From a virus, in IMG/VR virus record IMGVR_UViG_3300033183_000299, positions 119,931 through 183,930 of that record: a stretch of DNA of 64,000 bases. The stretch is one strand, 5' to 3'. This document shows, piece by piece, positions 2,651-15,905 of the stretch. A model generated the notes under the pieces. That model worked only from the letters and a program-made list of their open reading frames with translations. It was not told the DNA's origin and did not search any database. A program made the position numbers and the translations under genes. Position 1 is the first letter of the stretch. Each line of letters begins with the position of its first letter.

Positions 2651-5260
2651 TTACAATTTGACTTGTGCATACCCGTCAGTCTTATCGATCTCAATTGTTG
2701 TATCAACAATGTCCTTGAGACTTTCTAAATGAGTGATCAGCAATACTGTTTTGAATTGAGTTTTGATCATCTGAAGTAATTGAACAAAACCTTCCATATG
2801 CTCAGCATCTAATGCCGTTGCCGGTTCATCAAGAATGAATAGTTGGCTCTTTGGTAGAGACGATACTGAGATTAGGGCAAGTCGAACAGCCATAGAAGCA
2901 ATTGTCTTTTCAGCACCAGACCCCATGGACAATGGTCGAGCATCATATTTCGGATGCTTTAGGTAGACCTCCAACTTATCTCCATCCTCAGCAAAGAACA
3001 CTTGAAAATCAACGATGGAAGAAAGAACTTTTTGGATCTCATCGTTGATGATTGGAAGCATTGATTTGATAACTTCGTATGAAATTCCATTCGCATGAGT
3101 TGCTTTTACAAAGATGTCATAAGCAATGTAATCACGCTCAGCTTCTTTGATTTGTTCAATTCTCTCATTGGCTTCCTGAATCATACGTTCAGCAGAACCT
3201 TTTTCAGACATGTACCCAAGAACCTTTTCATCGCATCGTTTGATATCGGCAATCTTCAAATCAACAGTCTTATTGATTGCTAATAAGTCTCTCTTAAGGG
3301 AGGAAAGGTTTTCATACGCTTCAATGTTTTCGTTGTAGTATGCGATATCTGAATTGAGCTTCTCGATACGATGCTCAGCTAAAGATGCTTTACCTTCAAA
3401 GTTTTCCCACTGAATACTCATGTTTCTGATTTCATCAGTTAGTTTCTTATGAGATGTTTTGCTATCTGAATATCGATTGATAATGTTGTTCAGCGCTTCT
3501 TCATCAAACAAAGAACCTTTCATTTTAAGATCCAAAAGCTTTGACTTGATGTCTTCAATCTCAATATTCATTGGAGGTACTTTGCTTTTTGCTGCTTCCG
3601 CTTCCTTTACAAACTCATTATCGCAACAATATTTACAATCCGGATCGTACTCATGACCTTTGAGCATATCTATCTTTGATTGTAAGTTATCTCTCTTACG
3701 AGTTTTGCTTTGGAGGTCTTTGGTCAACTCTTTTAATTCTGACTTGATGGTCTCTAGGTCTTTGAGTTCAAGTTCAGCCTTATTGGAAGCTTCAAGCATG
3801 CTTGGAAGAGAAGAGGTCAAATCTTCAATCTGAGAGCGTTTTGACTTAATCTTGGTAGACAATGCCTCCATTTGATTGCGAGAACTTGAGAGTGTCTTTT
3901 CGGCCTCTTTAAGAAGTGATTTGACTGAATCAATATCTATCTCTTTTTGGGATGCTGCCTCTACTTGTTCTTTGATCATCGTTTGTTCTTGTTTAAGGGT
4001 ATCTAAACGGATATTGTGTCGATCGCATAAGTCTTTTTGAACCTCGATATCTTCAAGGATCTCGGACAACTCCTCTTTCGCTCGAGACAATTTCTTATCC
4101 CAATCAGCAGATTGAAGATGTTTGATTACGCCACGCATTTCGGCAGAGTCTTGCTTTGCTAGTTTGTGCATTTGATCAAATATTTGAAGATCCAAAAACT
4201 TAGCCAGAATTTCTTTGCGTTTCGTTGATCCTTCGCTGATAAATCCAAAAGAATCGTTCTGTGCTGCTAGAGAGGTCATCATAAAGTCCTCTAATGACCC
4301 AAAAGTATCCTTGATGTTATCATCAGTTTTGTTTCGGGTATCTCCATTTTTGGACTCCGGAGTTGTTCCAAAGTTATACTTTGTAAAGTCTAGCTCTGTT
4401 TTAGCCGAGATGACTTCTCGACCTTTAGACTTTCCGGTTGTTTTTTCGAGGCTTCGAGCAATTTTATAAACATCATCGCCGACAGCGATCTCGAGCTTAC
4501 AAGAAGCTCTTTCTTGGTTTTGATTGATGATATGGACATTCTTTCTTTCTCCCTTAGATGTAGTATTAAATAGGCCAAACAAAGCAGCGTCAATAATTGA
4601 AGACTTGCCTGAATAGTTTTTACCGAAGATGCCCACAAGCCCATTTAACTTGCTGAAATCTAGAGTATTGCCTTTTCCGTAATTAAATAGGTAGTCCCAC
4701 TTCATTTTCTTAATATCCCAAACAACATTTCGAGATACGCCGTTCGATGAATCAACTTTCTTTAAATACTCTTGCGAAAGCTCAACTACGCGATCTTTGA
4801 CTGAGTCTTCAACTTCATTTGTCTCCATAAATTCACGAAGAAACTTTTCTTGATTCTTTGGGTCTCGCATGTTGATTGCCTTACCGCCATTGGCTGAAGA
4901 CACCGAAGCTGATGACTGAGAATTGTTTACAAAAGAAACCGAATGAGTCGACCACTTAACTTGGGCGTAATCGCAGGCTCTCTTTAATTTTGCTGTGGGT
5001 AAGTTATAATTACAAACCAATCGTAAACGAGCATTCTTGGGTACATCTACATTGGGTAGTGTACCATCTTGATTTAGATGCACTGTAATAAATGGTCGAG
5101 GAGATTGGAATAATCTTTTCTCGATTGAATGCTTGTCTTTGGAGTGAATATTCCAAATCAAATAACCTTTTAGGCGAGACTCTCCAAAGTTCTGTTGCAC
5201 AGTGCTGCCTGCATAAATGCAGATGCACTTCTTTTTTCTTAATTTAATTTTTTTAGCCAT
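2651..5260 (-). CDS. sbcC: Mre11/SbcD C-terminal part fused to Rad50/SbcC ATPase (gp46-like)
   Basis: IYAGSTVQQNFGE (late Mre11 motif), Walker A GKNYSGKSS, coiled coils, Zn hook CKYC, signature LSMGSGAE, Walker B LFILDEP, LITH. Own GGAGG RBS. Confidence 0.92.
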   Translation of the reverse strand: MAKKIKLRKKKCICIYAGSTVQQNFGESRLKGYLIWNIHSKDKHSIEKRLFQSPRPFITVHLNQDGTLPNVDVPKNARLRLVCNYNLPTAKLKRACDYAQVKWSTHSVSFVNNSQSSASVSSANGGKAINMRDPKNQEKFLREFMETNEVEDSVKDRVVELSQEYLKKVDSSNGVSRNVVWDIKKMKWDYLFNYGKGNTLDFSKLNGLVGIFGKNYSGKSSIIDAALFGLFNTTSKGERKNVHIINQNQERASCKLEIAVGDDVYKIARSLEKTTGKSKGREVISAKTELDFTKYNFGTTPESKNGDTRNKTDDNIKDTFGSLEDFMMTSLAAQNDSFGFISEGSTKRKEILAKFLDLQIFDQMHKLAKQDSAEMRGVIKHLQSADWDKKLSRAKEELSEILEDIEVQKDLCDRHNIRLDTLKQEQTMIKEQVEAASQKEIDIDSVKSLLKEAEKTLSSSRNQMEALSTKIKSKRSQIEDLTSSLPSMLEASNKAELELKDLETIKSELKELTKDLQSKTRKRDNLQSKIDMLKGHEYDPDCKYCCDNEFVKEAEAAKSKVPPMNIEIEDIKSKLLDLKMKGSLFDEEALNNIINRYSDSKTSHKKLTDEIRNMSIQWENFEGKASLAEHRIEKLNSDIAYYNENIEAYENLSSLKRDLLAINKTVDLKIADIKRCDEKVLGYMSEKGSAERMIQEANERIEQIKEAERDYIAYDIFVKATHANGISYEVIKSMLPIINDEIQKVLSSIVDFQVFFAEDGDKLEVYLKHPKYDARPLSMGSGAEKTIASMAVRLALISVSSLPKSQLFILDEPATALDAEHMEGFVQLLQMIKTQFKTVLLITHLESLKDIVDTTIEIDKTDGYAQVKL

Positions 5261-6048: not shown

Positions 6049-6100
6049 TTTTTACTCCTCCCTTATGTTTTGTTGGATAGTAGTAAATAGTTTTGCTGAA

Positions 6101-10579: not shown

Positions 10580-11113
10580 TTAAGTAGTTTCTCCCCATTT
10601 CTTCTTTAGGTATTCCTCTATCTTTTCTTCAACCAAATATTTGTAAGAGCTATGGACGTACAAATGATGAGTCGGACACAATGGTACAAGATTCTTAGGA
10701 TCATCATTATCGTGATTTTCATCATAATGATGGACGGCGACAATCTTATCTTCTCCGCACACTACGCACACTTTTTCGTGATGAGCCCAGCAGATGCTTC
10801 TGTAAGAATTGCCGGTGCCATAATGGTTTGGCATTATCTCTTTTATTCCCCCAATTTTTTGAGCAGCGTCTTTGCATGATCTAGAACAGAAAAACAAGCC
10901 AGATTTCGATTGTTTCTTTTTGCTGTTGTTTTTGTAAAATTCCTTCCCGCATTTTGCGCACTCAACATTTGGTTTCTTAGGCTTTATTTTTGATACCCTA
11001 TGTGCTGCTGAACATTTTCTTGTACAAAATTTTCCATTTCCCCTCTTCACTTCTCTCAATAATGCTTCAAACTCTTTGCCGCATTGTAGACATGGTTTTT
11101 TAATTGTAGTCAT
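10580..11113 (-). CDS. HNH homing endonuclease with two N-terminal Zn fingers
   Basis: CLQCGKEF..FCTRKC, CAKCGKEF..FCSRSC, CVVCG...VHHYDENHDNDDPKNLVPLCPTHH; AGGAGG RBS. Confidence 0.88.
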   Translation of the reverse strand: MTTIKKPCLQCGKEFEALLREVKRGNGKFCTRKCSAAHRVSKIKPKKPNVECAKCGKEFYKNNSKKKQSKSGLFFCSRSCKDAAQKIGGIKEIMPNHYGTGNSYRSICWAHHEKVCVVCGEDKIVAVHHYDENHDNDDPKNLVPLCPTHHLYVHSSYKYLVEEKIEEYLKKKWGETT

Positions 11114-11194
11114 TTCTACCTCCTATTTTATTAATAAGTAGTGTTGTGTAGTAAAAAAGCTTTGCGCAAAAAGATAGTTCTCCACGATTGATGC

Positions 11195-11226
11195 AAAAAA
11201 AACCTTCCATCAATTATAACGGAAGG
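11195..11226 (-). terminator. Rho-independent terminator after the tRNA
   Basis: CCTTCCGTTA-TAAT-TGATGGAAGG + T8 on the minus strand. Confidence 0.8.
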
Positions 11227-11229
11227 ATA

Positions 11230-11301
11230 TGGAGGTGGGGAGGCTCGAACTCCCAAGAAGGCCTTGCAAGGGCCCCAGTTTCCCAGTTAGCTTACACCCC
11301 C
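11230..11301 (-). tRNA. tRNA-Ala(UGC), CCA not encoded
   Basis: Cloverleaf GGGGGTG/CACCTCC-A with the G3:U70 alanine identity pair, anticodon arm GGGCC-CTTGCAA-GGCCT, T arm GGGAG-TTCGAGC-CTCCC; one mismatch in the D stem. Confidence 0.92.
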
Positions 11302-11311
11302 ACATGTAACC

Positions 11312-12145
11312 TTAAATAGTGTGCGTCAATACATTTGGTATTTCTTGCTTTTGATTTCTCAAGATTTCTCGATAACGCGAGATGACCTTAAAATAAAGCC
11401 CTGAATTCGTCTGAAGAAGCCAAGAATGGAGCTGGGCGAACGTTTGAGTTTGGCTATATGTTACCATTCCGTAGTGCTCAGAAAGCAGCTGTAGGGCATC
11501 CTCGGGGCTCGTTATTGTCCATTCTGATGTATTTTTCTCTTTGATACCCGAGAAATGATTAAATGTGTAGCCAATCTCCGAGAATAAAGCCACAAGAAAC
11601 TGTGTTCTGTGGAGTCCTTTTAGGCCATGTTCGCCATGAGAATAGTAGGACCAAGTAAGCCAATCGATGTCTCCAACCATCCAATCGATCTGTACATGAT
11701 CCCCTGTTGGGCCATTCTCGTCATGTTGCGGAAAGCATGTAAAGATGTTTCCAGCAGTTACTTGACCTCCGACATCAATGTTATTCTCTGCAATTTTTTC
11801 TGAGATTAGAGTTAGTAAAGCACGCATCTTGCTCATTTGGTAAGTTGCTGTTCGTGCTCTCTTGTGGATTTTTGTGTAAAGATTATTCCAATCGTCATAG
11901 TCAACACCCCACTTCTCCAATTCATCCCCAGTAAATGAGCGAACGATGTGAGTCCAGTCGATTGCTAGATCCAAGTCTCCCGATGTTTCTTTCTTGCCCG
12001 CTGATCCAACTGGCTTGAAGAAAGTTAAAGAGTGAGCCTTCATCGGGAAGATTTCTCCGAGAGCTTTTTTGTAAGCCTCGATTGTTGGTCTCACTCTGTC
12101 TTTTGAAATTGTTGTTGCTTTGTCTTTAAAGATGTTACCACCCAT
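11312..12145 (-). CDS. Pol-beta superfamily nucleotidyltransferase
   Basis: VGSAGKKETSGDLDL (GS..DxD) and VQIDWM third acidic residue; start ATG 12145 (MGGNIF) with GGAGG RBS. Confidence 0.75.
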   Translation of the reverse strand: MGGNIFKDKATTISKDRVRPTIEAYKKALGEIFPMKAHSLTFFKPVGSAGKKETSGDLDLAIDWTHIVRSFTGDELEKWGVDYDDWNNLYTKIHKRARTATYQMSKMRALLTLISEKIAENNIDVGGQVTAGNIFTCFPQHDENGPTGDHVQIDWMVGDIDWLTWSYYSHGEHGLKGLHRTQFLVALFSEIGYTFNHFSGIKEKNTSEWTITSPEDALQLLSEHYGMVTYSQTQTFAQLHSWLLQTNSGLYFKVISRYREILRNQKQEIPNVLTHTI

Positions 12146-12167
12146 AGTGTCCTCCATTGTTTTAAAC

Positions 12168-12196
12168 AATATAACACGTTTGGATTGACTTGTCAA
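12168..12196 (-). promoter_or_regulatory. sigma70-type promoter overlapping the primase stop
   Basis: TTGACA-N17(..CGTGT)-TATATT. Confidence 0.8.
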
Positions 12197-13128
12197 ATAT
12201 TTTCTAAAAGTTTTTCAAAGAAATACATTTCATTCTTAATTGGTCTGGCTTCTTCAAGTCTTTCCTTAAACTCTTCGCTACCCATTTCTCCAACATCTGC
12301 GTCATCAATTGGGATCTTGAAAACTTCGAGATCGTATTTTAAAAGCGACTTGATGATCCATTCGGCTTTCTTCTCGGCATCTTTGTCGAGAGCCATGTAG
12401 ACCGGTGTGTCGTGGATCGCGATTGCTTGGAACAAACGTGACTTTTCTCGAAGCGTTGAGCCAAGGATTGGGATTGCGTTCTCTCCAGCTGCGATTGCGT
12501 CAAAGACACCTTCGACAAGAATGATTGGTTCGTCCCAATCAATGTTTAGTTCGTTAAAAACGATATCACGATCTGTTGGAGGGTTGAGGTACCTACGCTG
12601 ATGCCCAACATAGCTGCGAGCAATGAAATAGTTACAGTCTCCATCAGAGTCAATGGACGGGATAATGATTCGTCCTCCATAGCGGCCCTCCTTGCAATAG
12701 CCAATTTTCCATTTTAAAATCTCTCGACGACCAATACCACGAGACGATAGATAACGGAAAGCGTCCGTTGAGTCCATCGGCAGGTCTTTGTTGCATAAAG
12801 AGATAAATTCGTCGGGAAGATCGATCTTTTGTTTCTCTTCCACATTGTTTAGTTCTTTAAAAAGATCCTCGAACTCATTAAGGTCAAGGCGACCTTGTAG
12901 TTCAAGATACTTTTGTCGTTGCTGGTATGTTCCGAACTTTCTTACAATTCGGTAAATGTTTTTATGTCGTGAATCGCAGTGCCAGCAATGTGCGCCTTTC
13001 TTAAAGTTTACTGCGAATTTTTTATTTCTGTGATTGCAATAAGGGCAAGTGAAATAATATTCATCTTGCCCTTGTCTTTTTGGATAACCCAAAATTTGAG
13101 TTAGAATTTTTAATTTATCTGCTTCCAT
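12193..13128 (-). CDS. DNA primase (DnaG/gp61-like)
   Basis: Zn ribbon CPYCNH...HCWHC, YLSSRGI, RIIIP, TOPRIM LVEGVFDAI and ALDKDA. Confidence 0.92.
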   Translation of the reverse strand: MEADKLKILTQILGYPKRQGQDEYYFTCPYCNHRNKKFAVNFKKGAHCWHCDSRHKNIYRIVRKFGTYQQRQKYLELQGRLDLNEFEDLFKELNNVEEKQKIDLPDEFISLCNKDLPMDSTDAFRYLSSRGIGRREILKWKIGYCKEGRYGGRIIIPSIDSDGDCNYFIARSYVGHQRRYLNPPTDRDIVFNELNIDWDEPIILVEGVFDAIAAGENAIPILGSTLREKSRLFQAIAIHDTPVYMALDKDAEKKAEWIIKSLLKYDLEVFKIPIDDADVGEMGSEEFKERLEEARPIKNEMYFFEKLLENI

Positions 13129-13146
13129 AGTTGTCCTCCTTTAAAT

Positions 13147-13175
13147 AACTTAACACGAAAAGAAAGACTTGTCAA
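13147..13175 (-). promoter_or_regulatory. sigma70-type promoter for the intact primase
   Basis: TTGACA-N17(..CGTGT)-TAAGTT followed by AGGAGG RBS. Confidence 0.75.
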
Positions 13176-13182
13176 GAAGAAA

Positions 13183-13746
13183 TTAATAATTAAATCTTTC
13201 CGCTCTTTCAATCGCCCTTGTAATCGTTGTTGTGTGAACTCCAATTTCTTTCGCAATTGATCCTTTTGTTTCTCCGGAAAGCCATCTTTCTCTGAACGAT
13301 GCTTCTTGTTCGTCCGTAAATCTTTTATTTGATTTACTTATCTTTCTTCGCCACTCTTCACTCACAGGCTTTCCGTAATGTGGGTGGTTTTCATCGGATA
13401 GTTTTTCAGATAGAAGTTGCTTTACTTCTTCTGTGTGGTTCAGTCCAGCCATAGGAGAGCCGGCTACCCTGCTAATGTTGTAGATTTCTTGACCGCCGCC
13501 AAAGGCTTCGTCAAGATATTCTTGCTCTTTCGCAAGCAAATTTGCTCTTCTTACTTCTTCAATCAATACGAACTCAAATTGATCTTCGCCGTGCTTGTCG
13601 TAAGAATTTTGAAGGTGGAAGTTGGTGTGAGTTCCGCTTCTCAAGTTTGACTTGTGATGTCTCCACCTTCTCTTGATATTGTTTGAAGATCCAATGTAAA
13701 ATTTTCCATTGACCTTATTTGTTATTTTGTAAATTCCCGAGTTCAT
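13183..13746 (-). CDS. GIY-YIG homing endonuclease with NUMOD3 and HTH
   Basis: SGIYKIT...FYIGSS...RW..H...E...N; HTEEVKQLLS, HPHYGKPVSEEWRRKIS; C-terminal IAKEIGVHTTTI. Confidence 0.92.
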   Translation of the reverse strand: MNSGIYKITNKVNGKFYIGSSNNIKRRWRHHKSNLRSGTHTNFHLQNSYDKHGEDQFEFVLIEEVRRANLLAKEQEYLDEAFGGGQEIYNISRVAGSPMAGLNHTEEVKQLLSEKLSDENHPHYGKPVSEEWRRKISKSNKRFTDEQEASFRERWLSGETKGSIAKEIGVHTTTITRAIERAERFNY

Positions 13747-13882
13747 TTTGACTATCCTCCGCTAACTTGGAGTTAATCAAATTCTCAACAAACTTTCCAA
13801 CCTTCAAACCCTTTTCTTTACAATAGTTCTTTAACTTCTCGTGGGTCTCTTCGTTGATTTTGAGATTTTTTAAATTAGACAT
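13715..13882 (-). CDS. Small ribbon-helix-helix DNA-binding protein (55 aa, below the track cut-off)
   Basis: Hand translation MSNLKNLKINEETHEKLKNYCKKKGLKVGKFVENLINSKLAEDSQNELGNLQNNK; AAGGAG RBS; beta-alpha-G-alpha pattern. Confidence 0.75.
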   Translation of the reverse strand: MSNLKNLKINEETHEKLKNYCKEKGLKVGKFVENLINSKLAEDSQNELGNLQNNK

Positions 13883-13898
13883 GATAACTCCTTTTACT

Positions 13899-14060
13899 CT
13901 AAATAGTCTCTAAAAGATAAAAAAGGATAAAAAAAGATAAGTTCACCGACATCTTCTTTTTGTGGTGATTGCAATAAGGGCAATGATACAAATGCTCATC
14001 GCCCTTTTGATAATAAGACCCAAGTATTTGGGTTACAATTTTTCTTTTGTCCTCGATCAT
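13899..14060 (-). pseudogene. Truncated duplicate of the primase N-terminus
   Basis: MIEDKRKIVTQILG...DEHLYHCPYCNHHKKKMSVN aligns with primase residues 1-41, then unrelated low-complexity sequence and stop; own AGGAGG RBS and promoter. Confidence 0.85.
13912..13940. repeat. Three AAA(A/G)GATAA direct repeats with exact 10-bp period
   Basis: GATAA at 13916, 13926 and 13936 on the + strand. Confidence 0.75.
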
Positions 14061-14077
14061 AATGTCCTCCTGTTTAT

Positions 14078-14106
14078 AAGATAACACGTCACAGAAGGTT
14101 TGTCAA
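14078..14106 (-). promoter_or_regulatory. sigma70-type promoter (probable original primase promoter)
   Basis: TTGACA-N17(..CGTGT)-TATCTT. Confidence 0.8.
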
Positions 14107-14116
14107 GTAAAAAGTT

Positions 14117-14500
14117 TTATTTGTTTATCTCCATCATAATCTTCTCGGCTATATCTGAGACCTGAGCAGCTGGGATTCCGAGTGTGTTAGTTAAATAACC
14201 TGTAAGATCGAATCCTTCATCTTGTAGATTTTTAGCGATCTCCTTTGCTGCGAATCCGGCCCGTGAAATGGACGATATCCCAGCGTCATCTCTTAAAATT
14301 TTGGCAATTTCCATTTTCATTTGCATGTCTGGAGTGGAAAAATCTGGTGTTTCTCGTCTATCGGATGGGTGAAGATTCGGAGAGGTGTAGTCCCTTGGGT
14401 TTATATCATATTTACTTCTAAAGCGACGGTCGCCTTCGTTTATTACAGCTTCAAGCTCTTCTTTGATAATTCTTTTTAGGGCTTCTTTTGTGAGCTTCAT
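14117..14500 (-). CDS. Hypothetical protein with MKLTK..LKRIIKEELEAV leader
   Basis: 127 aa ORF with GGAG RBS; leader shared with 15107..15364. Confidence 0.7.
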   Translation of the reverse strand: MKLTKEALKRIIKEELEAVINEGDRRFRSKYDINPRDYTSPNLHPSDRRETPDFSTPDMQMKMEIAKILRDDAGISSISRAGFAAKEIAKNLQDEGFDLTGYLTNTLGIPAAQVSDIAEKIMMEINK

Positions 14501-14525
14501 TTTGATGTCTCCGCTAAATGAATGA

Positions 14526-15044
14526 TTATGCTTTAAATAGTTGCATAAATTGTTCTTCGCTTACACCATCTGGGAGAAACTTAGCGATCGACTCTCCGTT
14601 TCGTAATGCTTCTCGGAACTGCGTGGCGGATAGTTCATCCTTCATTTCAAACATCGGAACTTCGATTGTGTTGAAGCGAGTTGTCTTAAAGTATTTCATG
14701 AAACGCTCTTGATAGACGGCATCCTTTGAAGAGCACCCAAGACCCATCGGCTCATTCACTCTTGTCTCGGCATAGTCATAGCAATCGCTCAAAGGATTGG
14801 TGTAAGGGCCTTTCTTGCCTTCTCTAAGGGTTGCCCTGCGGTATGTTAGTTTTGGGTGCTCAAGCAAGCCGTAGAGGTCAAGGATCGCCTCCGTTGTCTC
14901 GAGACAGAATTCGTCTCGCTCTTTTGATCCAATGTAAAGACGAACTTCTTTAACGTCGGGATTGTCGAGATAAAACTTAATGTAGTCATAGTGACCTTTG
15001 TGAGGTGGCTTAAAGCCGCCTGGGATTAAAACTGTGTATTGCAT
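14526..15044 (-). CDS. HIGH-motif nucleotidyltransferase (cytidylyltransferase/NMNAT/PPAT-like)
   Basis: PGGFKPPHKGH and LSATQFREAL motifs. Confidence 0.8.
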   Translation of the reverse strand: MQYTVLIPGGFKPPHKGHYDYIKFYLDNPDVKEVRLYIGSKERDEFCLETTEAILDLYGLLEHPKLTYRRATLREGKKGPYTNPLSDCYDYAETRVNEPMGLGCSSKDAVYQERFMKYFKTTRFNTIEVPMFEMKDELSATQFREALRNGESIAKFLPDGVSEEQFMQLFKA

Positions 15045-15063
15045 ATGTCCTCCGTGTTTTAGT

Positions 15064-15092
15064 AATGTAACACGTTTGGATCATCTTGTCAA
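15064..15092 (-). promoter_or_regulatory. sigma70-type promoter
   Basis: TTGACA-N17(..CGTGT)-TACATT. Confidence 0.85.
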
Positions 15093-15106
15093 GTAAAAAG
15101 TTTAAA

Positions 15107-15364
15107 TTAATAATCACCTAAGGCATCAGCCAGGGCTTCTGCTTGGTTATAATCTCTGACTTCTTGTTCGCGAGTCTTCGGTGTTCCATCGGGTTTAGTT
15201 CTAGATGCAAGTTCTCTAATTTTAGGATGTGGATGATCGAGTAGTCGCTTTCTCTTTTCTAATGCCGCTTGTATGTCTGGGCTGATATAAGTTTTAGAGC
15301 CTTCTAAGACAGCTTCAAGCTCTTCTTTAATGATTCTTTTCAAAGATTGTTTTGTAAGTTTCAT
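15107..15364 (-). CDS. Hypothetical protein with MKLTK..LKRIIKEELEAV leader
   Basis: 85 aa ORF with AGGAG RBS. Confidence 0.7.
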   Translation of the reverse strand: MKLTKQSLKRIIKEELEAVLEGSKTYISPDIQAALEKRKRLLDHPHPKIRELASRTKPDGTPKTREQEVRDYNQAEALADALGDY

Positions 15365-15389
15365 GATTTAATCTCCTGTGTATTCTTAA

Positions 15390-15905
15390 CTAGTCTCGAA
15401 CATCAAAATGAGACATCGCAACAACAATAGCATCAGCTTCGTCATCGAGTCCTGGTTTTGGATTTCCATGATTGGTATATTCCATAATGAAGCCGTCAAT
15501 GTTTTCATTTACCCATTCCAATACGACAACCTTTGCCTTTGTTCCTCTTGGGACTTTAATGCCGCATCTGGATCGTGCTGTGGTGGCTCCAACGAGCGTT
15601 GGTGGTTTACCTAGGTGTTGATAGGCTAAGAGGCTTACCATGCCGTTAAACCGCTGTAGAGAGCTCATAGTCTTTGCTGTGGTCTTACCTCCGGAGAACA
15701 TTGAGAATGGCTCTTCAATTCTAACCTCGGAGATCTGATACTTGGCGAACAGAGGTTCGAGAACCTTTTGCTCTAGAGCCTCTGCTCTTTCTTCTAAAGG
15801 TGTCTTTGGTTTGGTCTTGAAGAAGTCTGAGTCAACATACTTTCCATCTTCGTCAATAATAGCCCAACCAATCCTTGAGGTTGAGACGTCAAGTCCCATA
15901 ATCAT
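15390..15905 (-). CDS. ruvC: RuvC-like Holliday junction resolvase
   Basis: MGLDVSTSRIGWAII, IEEPF, DDEADAIVVA; start ATG 15905 with GGAG RBS. Confidence 0.85.
   Translation of the reverse strand: MIMGLDVSTSRIGWAIIDEDGKYVDSDFFKTKPKTPLEERAEALEQKVLEPLFAKYQISEVRIEEPFSMFSGGKTTAKTMSSLQRFNGMVSLLAYQHLGKPPTLVGATTARSRCGIKVPRGTKAKVVVLEWVNENIDGFIMEYTNHGNPKPGLDDEADAIVVAMSHFDVRD

Follow-up and report, generated by a model that had tools for sequence, protein, structure and literature searches.

How a free-standing endonuclease gene can reside within the coding region of an essential replication gene, and leave that gene whole, is the question raised by a short segment of the genome of a marine phage, the virus record IMGVR_UViG_3300033183_000299. 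The stretch analyzed here (the window, 64,000 nucleotides, nt) covers bases 119,931-183,930 of this 183,930-bp record, which CheckV rates as complete. On its minus strand, a complete gene for a DNA primase of 311 amino acids (aa) is preceded by a gene for a GIY-YIG homing endonuclease, a gene for a small ribbon-helix-helix (RHH) protein and, further upstream, by a second, truncated copy of the beginning of the primase gene itself. Free-standing homing endonucleases are generally regarded as restricted to the DNA between genes, except where the host gene is protected by an intron or an intein, or tolerates being split. The arrangement found here is very probably that of a free-standing GIY-YIG homing cassette inserted inside the primase coding region, with the gene restored by duplication instead of splicing.

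In the order of transcription, the locus is formed by a promoter, a ribosome-binding site (RBS), and the open reading frame (ORF) of the primase remnant, followed by the RHH gene, the GIY-YIG gene, a second promoter and RBS, and the 311-aa primase (13128..12193), all on the minus strand of the window, which contains a single copy of the nuclease gene (Table 1). The remnant ORF opens with an ATG at 14060 and encodes 53 aa, those after codon 41 being unrelated residues that run to a stop at 13899. Residues 1-41/42 of the remnant are identical to the N-terminus of the 311-aa primase at 23 of 42 positions (E = 8e-13), the promoter, RBS, and approximately 41 codons occur as two direct repeats 931 nt apart, and the identical 19-mer TTGCCCTTATTGCAATCAC occurs in both, at 13030-13048 and 13965-13983. 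The order of the elements, the alignment of the N-termini, and this 19-mer had been reported in a preliminary description of the locus, and all of them were recovered here, as was the second promoter of the same class. This promoter class, TTGACA-N14-TGTTA, has 11 matches in the window, against 1.7 expected (a count that none of the shuffled sequences reached), while the same pattern with an N13 spacer gave only chance-level matches in the window. Both promoters of the locus belong to this class, the second with a weaker -10 box (TAAGTT) than the first.

Which of the two primase 5' ends is the resident one can be established by comparison with related viruses. Among the GenBank phages searched with the primase, none was closer than 33% aa identity, the level found in the closest cultured relatives by this protein, the Flavobacterium myophages, so that no annotated genome was helpful. 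The informative relatives are uncultured contigs, the majority from marine samples, and the scanning of viral contigs with the primase recovered 37 close relatives, designated here by L numbers. The site is empty in 17 related contigs, which lack the GIY-YIG gene, and occupied in five lineages, of which the window is one, while a single footprint allele is found in L001.

The primase N-termini of the 17 cassette-free contigs are 86-93% identical in aa to the remnant, and only 49-53% identical to the replacement end, which is the outcome that the preliminary description had set beforehand as a check. Over the 179 nt of 14117..13939, the window shares 96.1% identity with the intact primase gene of the cassette-free L005, from its promoter into its 5' end. 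The functional primase gene of the window, in turn, has 48-66% nt identity to the cassette-free alleles over nt 1-180 and 88-97% just after. The 127-aa gene upstream of the locus has a homologue directly 5' of the primase in the cassette-free L016, and the window is collinear with the cassette-free relatives through the upstream gene, the promoter, and codons 1-41 on the left, and from codon ~58 onward on the right. Given this collinearity of both flanks with the empty sites, the approximately 980 nt between 13938 and about 12960 represent the insert. The truncation reported earlier stands, with the homology ending in codon 41 rather than codon 40, and with an inserted tract somewhat longer than the ~0.9 kb that had been estimated.

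In the tree of the primase body, the window adjoins the cassette-free L002 (92% aa identity; nonsynonymous divergence, dN, 0.046; synonymous divergence, dS, 1.32), and the carriers are scattered over at least four separate places. In the tree of the N-terminus, the replacement ends of the window, L018, L004, and L082 form one clade together with L001 (support 86/94), while the remnants of the window, L004, and L018 fall within the cassette-free clade (95/88), with that of L082 just outside. The place of the window beside L002 in the body tree disposes of the possibility that the N-terminus beginning at 13128 is the ancestral one, and the sharp shift in identity at nt ~180, the trees, and the collinear flanks bear out the proposal that the element replaces the primase 5' end with its own. 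As in gene-end-replacing elements, the native end clusters with the element-free relatives and the inserted end elsewhere, and the diverged end copy is continuous with the core of the gene, with the native end kept alongside, in this case as a mirror image that involves the 5' end and a promoter. On these comparisons, the first ~58 codons of the primase are foreign to the backbone of the window.

The two direct copies would also be expected from a local tandem duplication of the primase 5' end, in which one of the copies diverged, the RHH and GIY-YIG genes were inserted separately, and nothing was imported. This origin is very improbable, given that the divergence of the functional copy from its close relatives is restricted to nt 1-180, and that the N-termini of distant primases resemble one another: L082 has 84-86% identity to L001 and L004 in the N-terminus but only 57-62% in the body, and the dS between L001 and L004 is 0.11 in the N-terminal patch and 1.63 in the body.

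Table 1. Coordinates of the features of the primase locus and of the related small genes (window positions unless a contig is named).
Feature	Coordinates	Strand	Basis
Resident primase promoter, TTGACA-17-TATCTT with TG, now 5' of the remnant	14078..14117 (box span 14106..14078)	-	Promoter scan; class motif at 14082-14106
Stranded 5' end (remnant) of the resident primase gene, from its start to codon 41, with the first Zn-ribbon CxxC pair	13939..14060	-	Match to cassette-free N-termini
Cassette left end: three TTATC boxes at 10-bp spacing, then ACTATTTA (13907..13900), 5' of the RHH start	13899..13940	-	Conserved in carriers
RHH (Arc/CopG-like) gene, 55 aa; 32-nt overlap with the GIY-YIG start	13715..13882	-	PHROGs, Pfam
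GIY-YIG homing endonuclease, 187 aa: catalytic domain, NUMOD3, C-terminal helix-turn-helix-like segment	13183..13746	-	Pfam, PHROGs, I-TevI match
Cassette-borne replacement promoter (TTGACA 13175..13170, -10 TAAGTT) and RBS	13129..13182	-	Class motif match 13151-13175
Cassette-borne replacement primase 5' end, codons 1 to about 56-58, all four Zn-ribbon cysteines	12960..13128	-	Nucleotide identity shift, tree
Resident primase body, codon ~58 to stop	12193..12959	-	92% aa identity to cassette-free L002
MKLT-family genes, window	14117-14500, 15107-15364	-	
MKLT-family genes, other contigs	L004:1755-2030, 2929-3171; L082:2521-2796; L123:11-349; L124:1420-1953		

The succession of remnant, cassette, and primase is found in four further lineages, L004, L018, L082/L083, and L124/L125. 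When L004 is compared with the window in segments of 60 nt, nt identity is 92-100% throughout the cassette, from 13940 to 13102, and 58-87% in the primase body, with dS values of 0.16 for the GIY-YIG gene, 0.12 for the RHH gene, and 1.39 for the primase body. The replacement promoter itself is 92-100% identical to its L004 counterpart on the same scale, and 70% identical to the promoter of the remnant. The window and L082 have 95% aa identity in the GIY-YIG protein, 100% in the RHH protein, and 62% in the primase, while L124/L125 is more distant (69% and 44% identical to the window in the GIY-YIG and RHH proteins, respectively). In L123, the RHH protein is 100% and the GIY-YIG protein 73% identical, and the RHH protein has the same aa sequence in L004, L082, and L123. 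A 31-mer from the left end of the cassette matches the four carrier contigs only, and no place but this locus, among the viral contigs searched. The locus thus combines a presence/absence polymorphism with an element more conserved than its flanks, as expected of homing, and the cassette is, by these divergences, much younger than the host primases and has spread horizontally in recent times.

The identity of the primase was provided by PHROGs (phrog_47, 2.8e-41, over the whole protein) and tblastn, with 33% identity to the annotated primases of Flavobacterium phages across 97% of the length (E = 1e-44), while in Pfam the DNAG_N and Zn_ribbon_DnaG matches were below the cut-offs. Both the CPYC and the CWHC pair are present, so that the protein has the Zn ribbon and primase core of a DnaG-type primase. 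The nuclease matches Pfam PF01541 (2.9e-13, above the cut-off), the homing endonucleases of phrog_314 (2.3e-34), and the catalytic domain of I-TevI (1MK0/1LN0, 5.8e-14), and residues 103-137 match NUMOD3 (PF07460, 3.7e-10, also above the cut-off). In an alignment of five sequences, with homologues down to 48% identity, residues G4-I5-Y6, Y17, G19, R26-R27, E74, and N90 are invariant, and the C-terminal segment IAKEIGVHTTTITRAI is conserved and looks like a putative helix-turn-helix (HTH), which, with NUMOD3, corresponds to the separate DNA-binding module of the GIY-YIG homing endonucleases. The dN/dS ratios of 0.04-0.26 for the GIY-YIG gene and 0-0.10 for the RHH gene indicate that both genes are under purifying selection, and the nuclease looks active, as predicted from its invariant catalytic residues, the I-TevI match, and the dN/dS ratio.

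The RHH protein matches the Arc-like repressors in PHROGs (7.6e-6), with weak matches to RepB-RCR_reg/ParG in Pfam. The three TTATC boxes at the left end of the cassette (13907-13940, minus strand) are kept in L004, L018, L082, and L123, and also in L124, despite its 44%-identical RHH protein, and are a likely candidate for the RHH operator. The cassette is itself a mosaic: around 13715-13746, where its two genes meet, the window, L082, and L123 differ very little in the RHH gene and operator (dS 0.075) but far more in the adjoining GIY-YIG gene (dS 0.58-0.92), as if the RHH module passed from one nuclease variant to another.

The junctions provide a means of locating the break at which the cassette entered the gene. 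Codon 46 is the last of the remnant in L004, L082, and L124, and the L018 remnant extends about one codon further, whereas the homology of the window remnant to the intact alleles stops at 13939, in codon 41. In comparison with L018, the window remnant lacks 26 nt between two AACTT repeats, and its shorter junction looks like a later microhomology deletion, which would also have removed any gene between the remnant and the RHH gene.

The footprint allele, L001, has neither the nuclease nor the remnant, and resembles the cassette-free alleles in its upstream region and -35 box. A stretch with 100% identity to the replacement end of L004 extends from the RBS to codon 49, after which the sequence is identical to that of the cassette-free L007/L008. 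This donor-type patch of ~170 nt is located in L001:3900-4160. The allele may represent either a repaired break that received the patch but not the nuclease, or a carrier that lost the remnant and the nuclease through recombination between the duplicated promoters.

The interval bounded by the remnant ends (codon 46) and by the rightmost extent of the L001 patch (codon 49-50) measures 12-15 nt, in TAC-TGG-AAA-TGY-TGG, between the two CxxC pairs, and the MEADK-type replacement alleles are 3 nt shorter at this point. The break should, on these boundaries, lie between codons 46 and 50, and the 3-nt deletion and the dense substitutions at this site suggest that the replacement allele is resistant to cleavage. 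An I-TevI-style CNNNG motif is found 23-25 nt upstream of the junction in susceptible-type and replacement alleles alike, and thus carries no weight as evidence of cleavage.

In L004, L082, and L124, the remnant runs into the leader of a small gene of the MKLT family (described below) exactly at the motif ACTATTTA, which has ACTAT in common with primase codons 45-46 (TAC TAT). Junctions of this type would also be produced by ordinary recombination between repeated promoter or leader sequences, in a moron-style shuffling that moved the cassette with the GIY-YIG gene as a passenger, and no site-specific cut in the primase. The motif at these left junctions is recurrent, the left crossover of L001 lies within the promoter, unrelated genes with the MKLT leader have been exchanged in the slot between the remnant and the RHH gene, and the promoter class occurs 11 times in the window. 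However, the right boundary falls inside the coding sequence, at codon 49-50 in L001 and near codon 58 in the window, at positions devoid of promoter-like repeats, and the remnants with an intact junction (L004, L018, L082, and L124) end at the same codon despite primases that are only 55-80% identical, the codon-41 end of the window being attributed to the secondary deletion. The nuclease is, in addition, always part of the cassette, with intact catalytic residues maintained by purifying selection, and a distant homologue (47% identity) also lies directly 5' of the primase in L085. Shuffling of this kind is an unlikely explanation for the locus as a whole.

A homing cassette that cuts the primase remains the preferred interpretation, although a number of observations weigh against it. 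The position of the cut and the immunity of the replacement allele are deduced from breakpoints only. With left junctions on the repeated ACTATTTA and a left crossover of L001 in the promoter, general recombination between promoter repeats could explain part of the pattern, and the shared junction may reflect either a single founding event or the repeated use of the same microhomology. The replacement N-termini are also mosaic, given that the 97%-identical cassette of the window and L004 is shared only to codon ~10, after which dS rises to 1.14. The replacement N-termini of L123 and L124 are of other types, altered mainly around codons 42-56, and that of L123 is nearer to the cassette-free type (79% identical to the remnant), so that no single "resistant" sequence can be defined. 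The L123 contig, finally, begins 10 nt 5' of its MKLT gene, and is too short upstream to show a remnant.

The upstream piece might, alternatively, be a maintained small gene, encoding, for example, a regulatory or decoy peptide with half of a Zn ribbon, a function that could coexist with homing of the cassette. The remnant retains its RBS and a strong promoter, its frame stays open for 53 codons, and the first 41 of these are nearly unchanged, although this high identity is expected in any case if the stub is recent. Maintenance is improbable when the other carriers are considered: beyond the junction, the window, L004, L018, L082, and L124 each have a tail unrelated to the others in sequence and in length, the remnant of L082 has a frameshifting 1-nt indel, that of L018 enters two stop codons, and the remnant of L001 is gone altogether.

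That the remnant stops in the middle of a domain, and that GIY-YIG genes are frequently borne by introns, might point to a group I intron, or some other spliced or bypassed element, or else to a chimera of the assembly. Either origin is extremely improbable. The Rfam search of 11000-15500, at E values of up to 1, returned no intron family, and matched a tRNA only, while the downstream ORF is a complete primase by itself, with its own promoter, RBS, and start codon, and repeats the residues encoded by the remnant. The splicing of the remnant to the primase body, one of the outcomes that would have overturned the earlier account, is thus left with no intron model to match it. A chimera is excluded by the recurrence of the same layout in at least four other independent assemblies, from different samples. 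Nor is the locus a split ("fractured") gene, given that the 41 codons of the remnant are duplicated in a full-length primase with four Zn-ribbon cysteines.

The homing cassette may be envisaged as a mobile unit composed of the TTATC boxes and ACTATTTA, the RHH gene, the GIY-YIG gene, a sigma-70-type promoter with its RBS, and the diverged primase codons 1 to about 50-58. During a mixed infection, the nuclease would cleave the primase gene of a cassette-free genome within codons 46-50, in the segment that separates the two CxxC pairs of the Zn ribbon. Repair from the carrier would use the remnant as the left homology arm and the primase body past the diverged tract as the right arm, and would copy the tract between the two arms, leaving the promoter and first ~46 codons of the recipient as a dead stub. 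The full primase would then be read from the imported promoter and 5' end. The role of the remnant as the left arm in ordinary homing would explain how the cassette reaches primases that are only 55-80% identical. Given the 3-nt deletion and many substitutions of the imported end, and a stub devoid of the downstream half-site, the carrier is probably immune to its own nuclease, and the RHH protein probably represses the cassette operon through the TTATC boxes.

As for its origin, the cassette may derive from an intergenic nuclease 5' of the primase that was captured through one-sided break repair. In L085 (441-1941), a 47%-identical nuclease lies between the gene of a RuvC-like resolvase and the primase, with no remnant and no RHH gene, and the primase N-terminus resembles the replacement type, an intergenic layout that may correspond to the ancestral state. 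The founding join would have used the microhomology between primase codons 45-46 and the ACTATTTA promoter motif of the donor, and the junction of the window would be a later, trimmed form, deleted between the two AACTT repeats. It is also possible, with a likelihood that we would place slightly below an even chance, that gene-end replacement represents a general third way into genes, beside introns and inteins, in which the stub is an obligatory upstream homology arm, the imported promoter and 5' end are the immunity allele, and the RHH protein and phased TTATC boxes are a dedicated regulator for an early replication operon. If so, a single data set would show the whole life cycle of such an element, from the L085 ancestor, through illegitimate capture, spread, and interior trimming, to a loss that leaves the resistant footprint of L001.

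The motif at the left junctions is found in other parts of the window. The 8-mer ACTATTTA occurs nine times, always on the coding strand, against 3.2 expected (minus strand, at 1815, 6084, 7382, 8472, 10487, 11313, 13900, 14534, and 21949), and is more useful than the 9-mer GACTATTTA, which is weakly enriched in the window (three occurrences against 0.8 expected). It precedes the MKLT genes, the RHH gene, and the nuclease gene of L085, and is a candidate for a middle or late promoter element. One copy, near 6084, lies within the other endonuclease cassette of the window. The small genes of the MKLT family share a ~22-aa N-terminal leader (MKLTK..LKRIIKEEL) and an upstream stretch beginning with ACTATTTAAAGCATAA, while their bodies are unrelated. 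The slot between the remnant and the RHH gene is occupied by different members of this family in L004, L082, L124, and L123, as if the genes were exchanged by recombination in the common leader.

A 177-aa ORF at 10580-11113 (minus strand), with several CxxC pairs, an HNH-like HH..N..H stretch, and weak Pfam matches only, may be another endonuclease gene, and the tRNA gene recovered by Rfam (11230-11301, minus strand, 47 bits) is located just upstream of it. In the cassette-free relative L009, a 29%-identical GIY-YIG homologue (L009:7843-8238) lies ~3 kb 3' of the primase, and other nuclease insertions thus exist in the replication module.

The locus shows another route by which phage endonucleases may enter coding regions, through a cut within the gene and the supply of a replacement end with its own promoter. 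This route accounts for short foreign patches at the ends of essential phage genes, and for annotated short orphan ORFs that resemble the beginnings of genes, and is a reason for caution, given that the gene ends adjoining nuclease genes can mislead phylogenies. The data set includes empty sites, several occupied lineages, and a footprint allele, and provides a candidate target of ~15 bp for a new I-TevI-like nuclease, which is directly testable in vitro.

The distinctness of this solution from introns, inteins, and split genes, as proposed in the preliminary description, is upheld, with the qualification that precedents in mirror image are known, from fungal mitochondria (PMC3630166) and from the diverged target copy of phage T4 MobA (bioRxiv 10.1101/2022.08.31.505936). 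The "fractured genes" of phages, such as nrdA/mobE of Aeh1 and the gp43 gene of T4-like phages (PMC2677866), have been split by the insertion of an endonuclease. They resemble the primase locus in having an endonuclease gene within a replication or repair gene, with neither an intron nor a contiguous intein, but both of their pieces are needed and do not overlap, whereas the downstream primase gene is complete and its first 41 codons are duplicated upstream.

The intronless homing of T4 SegF, SegG, SegB, and MobE (PMC2988022, PMC2330249, PMC2790892) also involves free-standing nucleases, and the primase cassette shares with these systems an I-TevI-like GIY-YIG nuclease with NUMOD and candidate HTH modules, a presence/absence polymorphism between related phages, the co-conversion of flanking markers, and a target in a neighboring conserved gene. 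The Seg and Mob genes, however, are intergenic, spread by way of homology in the genes on either side, and leave behind no duplicated gene fragment, whereas the primase cassette is inserted inside its target gene and the gene end is duplicated. The T4 experiments with the td intron (Parker et al. 1999, as reviewed in PMC2988022) describe one-sided homing, resection, and junctions at microhomologies; one-sided homing is experimental in that case, while the founding event in the primase is deduced from the ACTAT microhomology.

The MobA/gene 60 cassette of T4 (bioRxiv 10.1101/2022.08.31.505936, building on Bonocora et al. 2011) includes its own version of the target stretch, HomR, which has diverged to 67-81% identity and corresponds to the stretch that holds the cut site. 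In both systems, a free-standing phage endonuclease resides inside an essential replication gene and carries a diverged stretch of the target. Insertions recur at a single position across several phage clades, and "hit and run" alleles retain the footprint but not the nuclease. MobA differs in that the gene is split into two needed polypeptides, with the addition of extensions and translational bypass, and in that the resident target stretch is deleted rather than kept. The primase gene, by contrast, remains intact and requires no recoding, and the piece upstream of it is redundant.

In the literature searched, in which subscription journals were thinly covered, no phage endonuclease cassette that replaces a 5' end and carries a promoter was found to have been described. 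The closest counterparts are the mobile ORFs (mORFs) of fungal mitochondria, in which an endonuclease is inserted together with the foreign 3' end of a gene, and the native end is left stranded downstream (PMC3630166; PMC7487136). These mORFs gave rise to hybrid atp6, atp9, cox2, and nad3 genes in Glomus sp. (PMC3630166), and a hybrid atp6 gene is attributed to Allomyces macrogynus (Paquin et al. 1994, as cited in PMC3630166), while free GIY-YIG genes duplicated with the N-terminus of atp9 are also found in fungal mitochondria (PMC7487136). As in the mORFs, the endonuclease ORF of the primase cassette lies within a coding region, a diverged foreign gene end is continuous with the core, and the native end persists as an unused duplicate that is closer to the element-free relatives than the inserted end. 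The phage cassette, in contrast with the mORFs, replaces the 5' end rather than the 3' end, in a dsDNA phage rather than a mitochondrion, and has a second gene, that of the RHH protein, with the nuclease as a separate gene rather than an in-frame extension. The replacement of a 5' end also means that the element must supply the promoter, RBS, and start codon, and the primase cassette is, in these terms, the phage counterpart, at the 5' end of a gene, of a device familiar from fungal mitochondria.

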